DNA of 61,680 nucleotides, the filler included, from Dugesia japonica (taxonomy: Eukaryota): NCBI GenBank assembly GCA_001938525.1. It is 5 parts of 5 records of this genome, joined end to end, with 100 filler letters (N's around TTAATTAATTAA, not from the genome) between each part and the next. Parts side by side here need not be neighbours in the genome. Positions count along the whole stretch, not along the records: positions 41,804 to 61,680 come from MQRL01611380.1; 4 more parts are not named here. One strand, given 5' to 3'. The notes below the pieces were generated by a model, which did not search any database, was not told where the DNA came from, and saw nothing but the letters and a program-made list of their open reading frames with translations. Position numbers and translations under genes: made by a program. Below, piece after piece: positions 50,324 to 53,359 of the stretch (position 1 is the first letter of the stretch; each line of letters opens with the position of its first letter).

Positions 50324-52155
50324 TTGAAGCAATCGATAATGAAGCTTATGAAAATATGAGAATTGAGTTAGAGGATATGAAAATACATTATCAGCGTATA
50401 ATGGCGAGACAGCAAGAGAAAGGGGAATATGAAATAAATATGTGTGAACCAATAGAAGTGGATTTAGATACAATTGATGAGAGGAAGCAGGAAATATTGA
50501 TAAAGAATTTCCAATTAGAGATTACAAAAGAAAGAACGAATGAACTTAGATTGTTGCAGTATTTAAAAGATATTAATGAAAATCCGATCAACTTTCAGAA
50601 AATAAAACTAATAATAATCATTTTAGCAAAAAATCGAAGTAAAATAGAAATATCAGAAAATCTGGAAGCAATAGACGAAATATTTCAAAAATATAGTGAA
50701 TATGTGAAAAGAAATGAAACTTGGCAAGAGTCGTTAAATATCAAAGTAATAGCAAAACAAAACGATTGTTCTTTAACAGCATTAGAACTGACAAAGTGTA
50801 CAAAAACGAATAAATTATATAAAATGGTGAAAAAAGACTGGCCAGTATTGTTACAAAATGAAGATGTATTACAACTATCTTTTCATAACACAGAGTTAAA
50901 TGAGAATAAAACATTGATAGAATATGGAATTTTTCCAGGTAATGTTAATATCATAAAAGCAACAATAATCAAAGATACGCCACAAGTATTAACAAATAAT
51001 CAACAAAAATCTATGGAAGAAATTTTGAGTATGATAGCACAAGCAGATAAAGCTGAGGAGGAAAGAGCAAGCCAACAAGAAAAAAAGACAAGAAAAGAGG
51101 CAGAACAGCCACCAACATCAACTACAAGAAATGAAAATCCATCAACATCAGATAATGTAAGAAGCGAAATACCACGACAGAAAATATTTAAAGACAAAGA
51201 ATCAGATTACAAAAGATCAAGAGGTAGACAGATATTAGAAGATATAATACCGGAAAAATTGCAAGCTGAACATTTGAATAATATATCACAAAGGTATGAT
51301 GAACAAGTATCAGCAGGATCAGATCAAGGACTGATAAGAAGTCTAATCAAATTAGTACATGCTGATCTATATGATTGTATGATAACTCAGAATAGAGCAT
51401 TAATGATATTTGAAGATATGAAACTCTTATTAAAAGAAGTGAGCAAATTGATAATAGCAGATCCAGAAATTGATGATTATAAAGTATTAAAAACAATGAT
51501 GAAAGAGAGAATAAACAAAAATAAAGTAATTACAGCTATTTTGTATTTAATACTTAAAAATCGGGAGCAATTAGTTGAAAGACCTGATAAAAATATTGTG
51601 GTTGTAGAACGAATAATTAATCAATTTTTGAATAAAGGAATTAACGCATGGATCACACAGGAAGGAGGTTGGGAAACATTATATCCAAAAAGTAATCGTA
51701 AACAAAAAATTCAGCAAACAGAACAGGAAGAGGAAATCAAGAAACTCATTACTAAAGAAGCAAAGAAATCAAATCGACCATTAATGGGTACAATAATAAC
51801 AATTATAATAATGTTATTAGAGTNAGCAAGAGGAGCAAACGCGATGGTAGCATATGATTGTAATACTCCAAAATGGGGTAAAAAGTACTCATTATTAGAT
51901 GTGGAGAATTGTCCGGAGGCGCACCCGACAAAAATAAAAATATCAAATCCAATAATCATGCATTTATATCAAGAGTCCGATTTCGTACATGCGGACGCAT
52001 ATGAATGTAGTGTAAAATTTGAGGAAGGAGTTTCATATTGTGATACTACGCAAATTGTACCACTGATACCAGCCTGGTCTCAAGACATAGTGATAATAGC
52101 TGCAAGTGATTGTGAGAAAGCTTTTAAAACAAAAAAAGTTAAAGGTACATGGTAA
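50320..52155 (+). CDS. Accessory polyprotein: Bcl-2-like repeat, ubiquitin-like domain, Bcl-2-like domain, signal peptide, glycoprotein N-terminus
   Basis: 611 aa open. Ubl motif LQLSFHNTELNENKTLIEYGIFPG, BH2 motif NAWITQEGGWETL, hydrophobic LMGTIITIIIMLL followed by AMVAYDC. Confidence 0.75.
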   Translation: MIEAIDNEAYENMRIELEDMKIHYQRIMARQQEKGEYEINMCEPIEVDLDTIDERKQEILIKNFQLEITKERTNELRLLQYLKDINENPINFQKIKLIIIILAKNRSKIEISENLEAIDEIFQKYSEYVKRNETWQESLNIKVIAKQNDCSLTALELTKCTKTNKLYKMVKKDWPVLLQNEDVLQLSFHNTELNENKTLIEYGIFPGNVNIIKATIIKDTPQVLTNNQQKSMEEILSMIAQADKAEEERASQQEKKTRKEAEQPPTSTTRNENPSTSDNVRSEIPRQKIFKDKESDYKRSRGRQILEDIIPEKLQAEHLNNISQRYDEQVSAGSDQGLIRSLIKLVHADLYDCMITQNRALMIFEDMKLLLKEVSKLIIADPEIDDYKVLKTMMKERINKNKVITAILYLILKNREQLVERPDKNIVVVERIINQFLNKGINAWITQEGGWETLYPKSNRKQKIQQTEQEEEIKKLITKEAKKSNRPLMGTIITIIIMLLEXARGANAMVAYDCNTPKWGKKYSLLDVENCPEAHPTKIKISNPIIMHLYQESDFVHADAYECSVKFEEGVSYCDTTQIVPLIPAWSQDIVIIAASDCEKAFKTKKVKGTW

Positions 52156-53359
52156 TGAGTTAGAGGTAAGAGTTGGTGCTAGAGTAAAGCAAAGAGTGGA
52201 TATTGTGGAGGAGGAAATTTTAAAATATGGGGACAAGTGAAATCTGCCATCTTAGTTAGAAGGCAATATCATCTTGAATTAAAGAAAATAAAAGCAACAT
52301 TTGGCGCTGCTACGGGAAAATAAAGTGTGAAGTAGCAGTGACAGTAACAAATTATAATGGTCTATATCTATCAACAAAGGAAATTAAGGATGCCAGACCA
52401 GAAGTAGATAAATTGGATGTAAAAATAGCTACATATTTCAACAACAAAATCGATTTCCTATATCATGAAATATTGAGACAAGTAGATAGAATATATACGG
52501 GTACCATGATGGATTATTGNAAAGTTAAACGAGAATTGTTGAGAGCATAAATGGCAATGGTAGTTACAAATCCTGATTTGGTTGCACCACTTTTATTTGA
52601 GGAAAAAGGAACATTCAGAAGAATAGTGGGAGAAACGTTAGTGAGCTTTAAATGTAAACAAGTAGCAGTTACGCTTACAGATCATGAGAAATGCACTAAT
52701 GAACTACCAGTAATTTATAAGGGAGAAAAAGTATTTTTACTCCCAATAACAAGAATTCTAACAGATAAACATTATCAACCAAAAGTGATTGAAAAATGTA
52801 GAAATATTCTTGATCCTATGTACAAACTAACTGACGAGGTATGGATAACAGTATCAGATAGAAAGACAGCACAAACTCCACTGATGATGGAAATGATAGA
52901 ACTCAGTAGAACAACCGAAATGGAAAGAATTGATAATATGGAAAATCGTGGTATTTATACAATAAATGAATTTGAAAAAGCAAAGAAACATATGCTTTTT
53001 CCAATACAAAGAGAAATAATAATGGAGACGATTCAAATTTTGAATCACTATTGCATGCAGATCATTTTAAAAGAGCAATGCGTAACGTCGTAGATAGATT
53101 TTTGGGGGGAATGCAATGGATCGGCAATATATTCTCATGTATTTTATTTGGGTGGTATGTCTTAACATTTTTAAAATTAGCAGGTCATCAAATACTCTCT
53201 TTAAGACAATTACATGAAGTTTTCAGTTACACATGGAAACTAGAAGCATGTTTCTGTCCATTTGTTACAAAACACATGATTGTGCGAAACCATAGTGAAA
53301 AAATAAAAAATCTAGAAAAACATCGAGGTAAATATACAGTAAACATGGATGATGAGTAA
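51769..53359 (+). pseudogene. env: Chuvirus-type envelope glycoprotein (decayed after about 52150)
   Basis: Signal peptide, AYDC...YSLLDVENC, LYQ..ECSV, GE...FKCKQV.V...CTNELPV.Y.G..VFL.P.TRIL, and C-terminal TM WIGNIFSCILFGWYVL...LHEVFSYTWKL. Confidence 0.75.

Follow-up and report, generated by a model that had tools for sequence, protein, structure and literature searches.

We analysed a window of 61,680 nucleotides (the whole stretch of DNA, filler included) from the flatworm Dugesia japonica (GCA_001938525.1), in which a glycoprotein gene of viral type (G) stands between the gag and protease genes of a long terminal repeat (LTR) retroelement. The gene (51850-53359, on the plus strand like all stranded features of the element) is probably the env of a compact Burro-like element, now decayed, that belongs to Ty3/Gypsy and to the GAG-ENV-POL type of flatworms. 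The layout itself has already been published, and the element is a compact further family of a described group.

The glycoprotein gene and its family

A complete LTR element occupies 47892-61389 (13,498 bp), with LTRs running from TG to CA and a flanking 4-bp GGTA duplication. Paired LTRs, target duplication, primer-binding site, polypurine tract and a reverse transcriptase (RT) of Gypsy type are all present; the Ty3/Gypsy assignment follows from the domain order protease (PR), RT, RNase H (RH) and integrase (IN), together with RT matches to Gypsy-type polyproteins. A gag region (PF03732) and a CCHC knuckle lie 5' of G, and protease, RT, RNase H and integrase lie 3' of it. The matches of G and of the flanking domains are far beyond chance.

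The landmarks that an earlier note had read from the sequence (a signal, a Cys-rich ectodomain opening with AYDC, a C-terminal transmembrane (TM) segment and a DTGA protease shortly downstream) were all located in the window. A hydrophobic stretch (51778-51828) forms part of an internal signal-peptide-like stretch (51778-51849, from hydropathy) immediately 5' of mature G. The ectodomain begins with AYDC..YSLLDVENC at 51850 and is followed by a membrane-proximal helix, a second hydrophobic stretch corresponding to the TM segment (53129-53179), a tail and a stop (53357-53359). The protease domain starts about 160 bp past this stop, and its DTGA motif (53568-53579) lies 209 bp past it.

Three pieces of G match the Pfam family PF24664 (Monjiviricetes_fusion) in profile order (E 1.4e-4, 4.3e-27 and 2.2e-7), and two of the ten standalone G matches whose names were looked up are a chuvirus glycoprotein and the freshwater turtle neural virus 1 glycoprotein. 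An AlphaFold2 model was made on an intact relative (P0002, alignment of 107 rows); it has a mean pLDDT of 83.2 and a central helix of 48 residues. The best matches of this model among solved structures are herpesvirus gB (E 3.8e-13, at a TM-score of only 0.31-0.36 over the whole query) and the best among viral structures are chuvirus-like glycoproteins (E 8.2e-43). The gB-like fold with its long central helix was seen in this model of P0002; a sequence search with another relative (P0001) against solved structures gave no matches. The ectodomain, including its cysteines, is conserved across deep divergence. By family and predicted fold, G is a chuvirus-type class III fusogen, in agreement with the identity given in the earlier note, which had asked for profile and structure comparisons of this kind.

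What the note did not state is how heavily the copy is broken. Window G consists of six stop-free pieces spread over three frames, and relative to natural relatives about 90 residues are absent near 52320 and about 12 near 53025. Stops or frame changes also affect gag, the junction of gag with the ubiquitin-like (Ubl) region, the G-protease junction, the PR-RT spacer and the integrase; the frames of G and protease do not agree, and the catalytic motif of RT is not intact (the searched pattern matched in 8 of 9 relatives). The copy is dead or badly assembled, and given the scattered Ns and gaps in the window some misassembly is possible. The published errantivirus survey admits elements with intact open reading frames (ORFs), which the relatives have and the window copy lacks. 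As it stands, this copy cannot make a particle, a fusogen or a polyprotein.

G and protease in one reading frame in relatives

A search with the largest window G piece returned one relative, P0001, which is 57% identical and unbroken from a BH2-type motif through the signal into G. Against 1.84 billion representatives P0001 gave 876 matches at E <= 0.001, and from the 150 listed we chose 22 for scanning on the basis of length or upstream sequence. G and protease share a single uninterrupted ORF in 11 of these 22 (five of the 11 also carry RT and RNase H), and gag or its knuckle lies in the same ORF as G in 4/22, as judged with Pfam. Four further ORFs (P0152, P0200, P0211 and P0256) have the order G-PR-RT-IN. 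P0003 holds a Bcl-2-like motif, G and protease within one ORF, P0016 aligns in order with the window across gag and the CCHC, Ubl and Bcl-2 regions into G, and P0021, P0211 and P0256 run unbroken from the gag knuckle to integrase. The earlier note had suggested repairing the frameshifts to see whether G and PR form one ORF; natural relatives settled the matter without repair, and its placement of G inside the pol polyprotein is borne out in them. Relatives thus encode a single polyprotein with G, and we infer the same for the window element.

Some of these proteins have further characteristics. P0211 and P0256 are single gag-G-PR-RT-IN ORFs with a more distant G (a weak match to herpes gB in Pfam) and fall outside the RT clade of the window; their layout may have a separate origin or be a rearranged form of the same one. 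In P0152, P0006, P0004, P0003, P0014 and P0196 a single ORF holds two to seven aspartic-protease-like domains, some of them after integrase, and the clade members P0152 and P0196 contain ankyrin repeats. P0008 (HBK71150.1) is a full G-PR-RT-IN polyprotein of the clade that NCBI labels as a Flavobacteriaceae MAG protein; the record is probably host DNA binned into a bacterial genome.

Age of the partnership between G and pol

Two quick trees were made. In the RT-RNase H tree (125 rows) the window falls within a 97-supported set of 15 rows, together with seven of the nine G-bearing pol proteins. The G tree was built on the C-terminal half, with 127 of 142 matches kept after a length filter plus the window; here the window lies in a 96-supported set of 23 rows that holds 13 of the 15 proteins with G and protease and none of the 89 standalone G. 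Distances of G and RT are correlated, both for the eight in-clade elements (rho 0.77, p 0.004) and for all ten (rho 0.51, p 0.008). Given that G diverged along with RT across the clade, these sequence comparisons indicate that the capture is old and that G has been inherited with pol over a long time, so that it is not an event of the window element. The earlier note's idea of a capture peculiar to this element is accordingly not supported. Its independence from the BEL/Pao capture is plausible, since a standalone G with a DUF5641 tail falls outside the window G clade.

We consider it very improbable that this element, or a close family, recently and independently acquired G from a chuvirus. 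The nearest viral structures and sequences are indeed chuvirus-like G, and the elements with G in pol do not form one clade (two of the nine G-bearing pol proteins lie elsewhere in the RT tree). In the survey of Chary and Hayashi (PMC13524379) the GAG-ENV-POL elements are likewise non-monophyletic, which implies several captures or rearrangements. Nonetheless, window G is 34-50% identical to the G of related polyproteins, whereas the standalone G among the matches listed are only about 19-32% identical to the close relative P0001. Window G also nests among 13 proteins with G and protease, with no standalone G inside, it diverged with RT, and its base composition equals that of the rest of the element, so that a recent capture is already contradicted for the window element. 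Still less credible is an endogenous viral element that inserted on its own into an ordinary gag-pol element, a reading which we regard as hardly worth entertaining. A stop and a frame change do border G on its 3' side in the window copy, but boundaries of its own were looked for at the window locus and not found: the longest flanking repeats measure 9 nt (direct) and 7 nt (inverted). Even the window copy keeps G and the Bcl-2-like ORF on its 5' side in a common frame, and G occupies the identical position within a single ORF in many relatives. The distance from TM to protease (about 146 codons) is within the range of the relatives (about 135 in P0006, about 164 in P0004). The intact natural ORFs refute an insertion, and together with the missing repeats and the shared base composition they led us to reject it in favour of an old, inherited G.

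Ubl and Bcl-2-like regions

Two candidate domains lie between gag and G. The region at 51331-51696 closes with a W-x4-GGW motif of BH2 type and would be a helical domain of Bcl-2-like kind; its match to PF00452 (E 0.0023-0.0026) does not reach the gathering score. PF00452 is also matched in relatives (E 7.7e-5 and 9.6e-4), and a profile match to Bcl-xL structures was obtained at E 0.0035; a sequence search of the window Ubl-Bcl2 piece against solved structures gave weak matches, those to the Bcl-2 family at E 1.1 or worse, and in a homolog search with this piece none of the 8000 scored candidates passed. The ubiquitin/SUMO-like label at 50701-50988 is a lead, drawn from an Atlas feature score of 0.89 to ubiquitin clusters. 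The P0016 region aligned to it matches PF00240 at E 0.031, and Pfam gave no match for it in the window piece.

A putative membrane protein after integrase

After integrase, and in the frame of its C-terminus, the window contains a second signal-like stretch (57112-57162), a beta-rich segment, a stop and a TM-like stretch (about 57592-57665), the whole spanning 57112-57665. Among the 12 clade proteins whose integrase end is complete, 9 have at least two hydrophobic segments after integrase; among 94 other Gypsy proteins, of which 47 have post-integrase tails of at least 150 residues, 1 does. A protein with second signal and TM is found in P0004, P0008, P0017, P0152, P0184, P0186, P0188, P0196 and P0198, in many cases together with an FN3-like motif and a cytosolic tail rich in proline. 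As judged by eye, a motif of the type C-x2-L-x-(P/Y/H)-x3-Y/H, like that of the window, is present in six tails, and others differ.

The beta-rich segment has a weak likeness to FN3 (Pfam E 0.054, Atlas 0.88). Its model reached a mean pLDDT of 44.5, on a partly misaligned alignment of seven rows, and none of the 11 relatives scanned has a Pfam match to fn3. With this low pLDDT the FN3 label remains a lead: the signal-plus-anchor protein is possibly FN3-like.

Membrane topology and a possible mechanism

Topology was derived from Kyte-Doolittle hydropathy windows. In the window and in 16/16 relatives checked, mature G comes after a hydrophobic core and a run of small residues (a count without a control), and 6 of 9 proteins with G and RT have exactly two hydrophobic segments before the RT motif. 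Two such segments, the signal and the G anchor, would return PR-RT-IN to the cytosol. An ectodomain between a signal or TM and a second TM, as in errantiviruses, is thus present as far as hydropathy goes. The cytosol-lumen-cytosol layout that the earlier note had proposed is well supported by hydropathy; the processing it added, by signal peptidase and the element's own protease, would follow by analogy. Flavivirus and alphavirus polyproteins provide the model for the simplest reading, in which signal peptidase would release G and the element protease would cleave the cytosolic parts.

In such a scheme the gag, Ubl and Bcl-2-like domains would be made in the cytosol, after which the internal signal would direct G into the lumen of the endoplasmic reticulum (ER). 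Signal peptidase would free the N-terminus of G just before AYDC, and the leftover signal would stay behind as a membrane anchor on the Bcl-2-like domain, possibly in the manner of the C-terminal helix of cellular Bcl-2 proteins. The TM helix of G would halt transfer and leave PR, RT and IN to fold on the cytosolic side, where the element protease would separate the parts. The second signal would export a further type I membrane protein after integrase. G would then coat the particle and mediate its fusion with another cell, and the Bcl-2-like and Ubl modules would protect the producing cell from death.

Taken to its full extent, this would be a whole enveloped particle from one polyprotein with four ER membrane crossings, in the manner of flaviviruses: cytosolic gag-Ubl-Bcl2, signal, lumenal fusogen, TM, cytosolic PR-RT-RH-IN, second signal, lumenal FN3- or mucin-like protein, and TM with tail. 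The post-integrase protein would act as a separate attachment or trigger partner of the gB-like fusogen, as in herpesviruses, and the signal of the fusogen would also serve a captured Bcl-2 as its tail anchor. We put this complete scheme forward tentatively, as a proposal that may well fail. If the post-integrase protein is indeed an entry partner, these flatworm-type elements would enter cells with a system of two parts, and no such system of a retrotransposon is described in the literature searched.

Several points weigh against our interpretation as a whole. The frames of G and protease differ in the window, and the single ORF is taken from relatives of 24-57% identity. The window RT sits on a long branch, both trees were built by quick methods and neither contains a named Burro sequence. 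The Ubl and Bcl-2 labels fall below curated thresholds, and the BH2-type motif is found in only 6 of 17 relatives with upstream sequence. The topology was read from Kyte-Doolittle windows, with a signal count that has no control, and three of the nine proteins lack the clean two-segment pattern: G is truncated in P0012 and P0200, and P0152 shows additional hydrophobic segments ahead of RT. Finally, a moderately hydrophobic stretch after the TM of G is conserved; if it crosses the membrane the protease would be lumenal, which is the main uncertainty of the topology.

Expression and function

The gag-env-pol order might be real while the full-length threaded precursor is a minor product, with most translation stopping early after gag or gag-G and pol being reached by frameshift, readthrough or splicing. 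We give this a lesser but real chance; it would free the element from having to make gag, G and pol in equal amounts. Consistent with it, the window changes frame from gag to the Ubl-Bcl2-G ORF over 50269-50323, with an A-rich run in the overlap (the change at 50260-50330 may be either programmed or mutational). Likewise, P0004, P0152, P0008 and P0017 begin shortly 5' of G and lack gag, the long ORF of P0015 (1963 aa) ends after G, and the pol ORFs of P0184 and P0198 begin after G. Split database ORFs may, however, reflect decay or gene-calling artefacts, P0021, P0211 and P0256 carry knuckle and integrase in one ORF, and ORF1 of Burro is described in the consulted part of PMC6431247 as a single ORF of 4,873-5,140 residues. 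It might also be argued that G is kept without infectious particles, either as an anchor in the ER membrane at which gag and pol collect or in a role useful to the host, which we judge improbable. Direct evidence of cell-to-cell spread for this group was not found in the literature searched, and Burro1 is reported, second-hand in the part of PMC13465017 consulted, to be useful to its host through an anti-apoptotic module. Against this stands the conservation of the whole ectodomain with its cysteines over deep divergence, which is more than an anchor alone would need. A fusogen made within the pol polyprotein remains our preferred account, and the relatives gathered here give it a concrete and testable topology.

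Neither an FN3 protein in such elements nor the membrane-threaded precursor mechanism was found in the literature searched, which left out Grohme et al. 2018, Sacco et al. 2022 and Lee et al. 2026. Compact relatives, the internal signal or the post-integrase protein may already have been described by Grohme et al. 2018 or Lee et al. 2026. With the layout published, the open value of the element lies in its topology and in the membrane protein after integrase, both not found in that same literature.

Other features of the element and the window

Pfam was run on 15 stop-free ORF pieces of the window and found gag, CCHC, a weak Bcl-2, PF24664, protease, RT, RNase H and integrase. The left copy of the GGTA duplication lies at 47888-47891 and the right copy at 61390-61393. 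Between them, the 5' LTR (47892-48756) contains an assembly gap and differs from the 3' LTR (60471-61389) at 19 of 802 aligned sites. A primer-binding site beginning with TGG follows the 5' LTR (48761-48778), and a polypurine-tract region precedes the 3' LTR (60451-60470); no tRNA gene was found in the whole window. The 5' leader between primer-binding site and gag holds a short tandem repeat with a unit of about 42 bp (49000-49085).

The gag capsid region (49178-49783; PF03732, E 1.2e-5) ends in a stop in the window copy. It is followed by the nucleocapsid part (49784-50323), with R/N/S/P-rich repeats, one CCHC knuckle (50201-50248; PF00098, E 1e-4) and then the frame change; imperfect N-Y-N-R-N-x-S-P-G-R repeats lie 5' of the knuckle (49900-50150). 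Downstream of G, the aspartic protease is mapped to 53460-53792 (PF13975, E 1.7e-8), and the PR-RT spacer (53793-54385) is kept in four relatives (tblastn E 1e-6 to 1.5e-9) and has no Pfam match in the window, including none to dUTPase. RT and RNase H follow (54386-55987; PF00078, E 5.3e-30, and PF17917, E 3.6e-35; the RT catalytic motif is disrupted), and then integrase (55988-57105) with H2C2, core and C-terminal module and with stops and a frame change inside. The 3' accessory region (57699-60441, about 2.7 kb) has several ORF remnants of up to 232 codons without any Pfam or other known family, and 59225-59840 is duplicated around an assembly gap.

The window holds the element only once. 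Other decayed Gypsy pol remnants are found at 34600-37400 and 42400-43600 (about 30-45% identical to the element over the longer matches), as is an integrase remnant at 7606-7989. At 960-1541 and 19543-19914, on opposite strands, lie a pair of related ORFs that look coiled-coil-like and belong to no known family.

Comparison with known systems

The earlier note took the placement of G to be unprecedented. This premise does not hold: an in-frame Ubl-BCL2-env-PR order is described for the Burro elements of planarians (Arkhipova and Yushenova 2019, PMC6431247, as far as consulted), and the consulted text of Chary and Hayashi in eLife (PMC13524379) catalogues GAG-ENV-POL elements of gB type from nematodes, bryozoans and flatworms, among them six from Schmidtea mediterranea.

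The Platyhelminthes GAG-ENV-POL errantiviruses of HSV/gB type (group C1a) have, like the window, a Ty3/Gypsy pol and a gB-type env before it, between gag and pol. When aligned by eye and without gaps to the env of Smed_errantivirus_3, window G is identical at 32 of 68 residues (51943-52146) and 23 of 41 (52198-52320), in total 55/109; an identity of about 50% in this by-eye comparison, against a decayed window copy, indicates a different family. This likeness, like the low GC of the window, fits a flatworm host. The survey handles GAG, ENV and POL as ORFs, and its main text is without the terms polyprotein, in-frame, Bcl-2, fibronectin or Burro. The nematode gag-G-pol metaviruses (Sacco et al. 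2022, via the consulted text of PMC13524379) share the flipped env-pol order and a glycoprotein of RNA-virus type with the window element, but belong to another host group and, according to the survey, to other pol clades. Mosquito BEL/Pao elements with chuvirus G (Dezordi et al. 2020, PMC7642597, in the part seen) carry the same glycoprotein family, but their pol is BEL/Pao instead of Gypsy, their G lies 3' of integrase and they fall outside the window G clade; P0059 has DUF5641 before G. Chuvirus (Jingchuvirales) G and herpesvirus gB share PF24664 family and fold matches with the element G, whereas they are standalone genes with an N-terminal signal and are 10-22% identical in structural alignments.

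The closest likeness in layout is to Burro/GYPSM1, giant Gypsy elements of dugesiid planarians. According to the consulted part of PMC6431247, these share gag-CCHC, a BCL2-like domain, env, PR, a PR-RT spacer and RT-RH-IN with the window element, and they have a Ubi/SUMO-like domain before the BCL2-like one, for which the window offers a lead. Their env matches mononegavirus fusion glycoproteins and lies in frame between gag and pol, as in the window type; env between BCL2-like domain and PR is seen in the window by position and in frame in the P0003 ORF. In contrast, Burro exceeds 30 kb against 13.5 kb here, has an ORF1 near 5,000 residues and carries two or three CCHC knuckles instead of one. 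The 15 window ORF pieces have no Pfam matches to the BIR, RING, MATH, Smc or ankyrin modules of Burro, and the position of the window PR-RT spacer is taken in Burro by a domain that the paper labels dUTPase-like. That part of the paper makes no mention of an internal signal or a post-integrase membrane protein. Given that giant size and the BIR/RING, MATH and ankyrin modules are absent and that no named Burro is in the trees, we do not file the element as Burro despite its Burro-like core. At 13.5 kb it shows the Ubl-Bcl2-env-PR core on its own, free of the additions found in the giant Burro elements.

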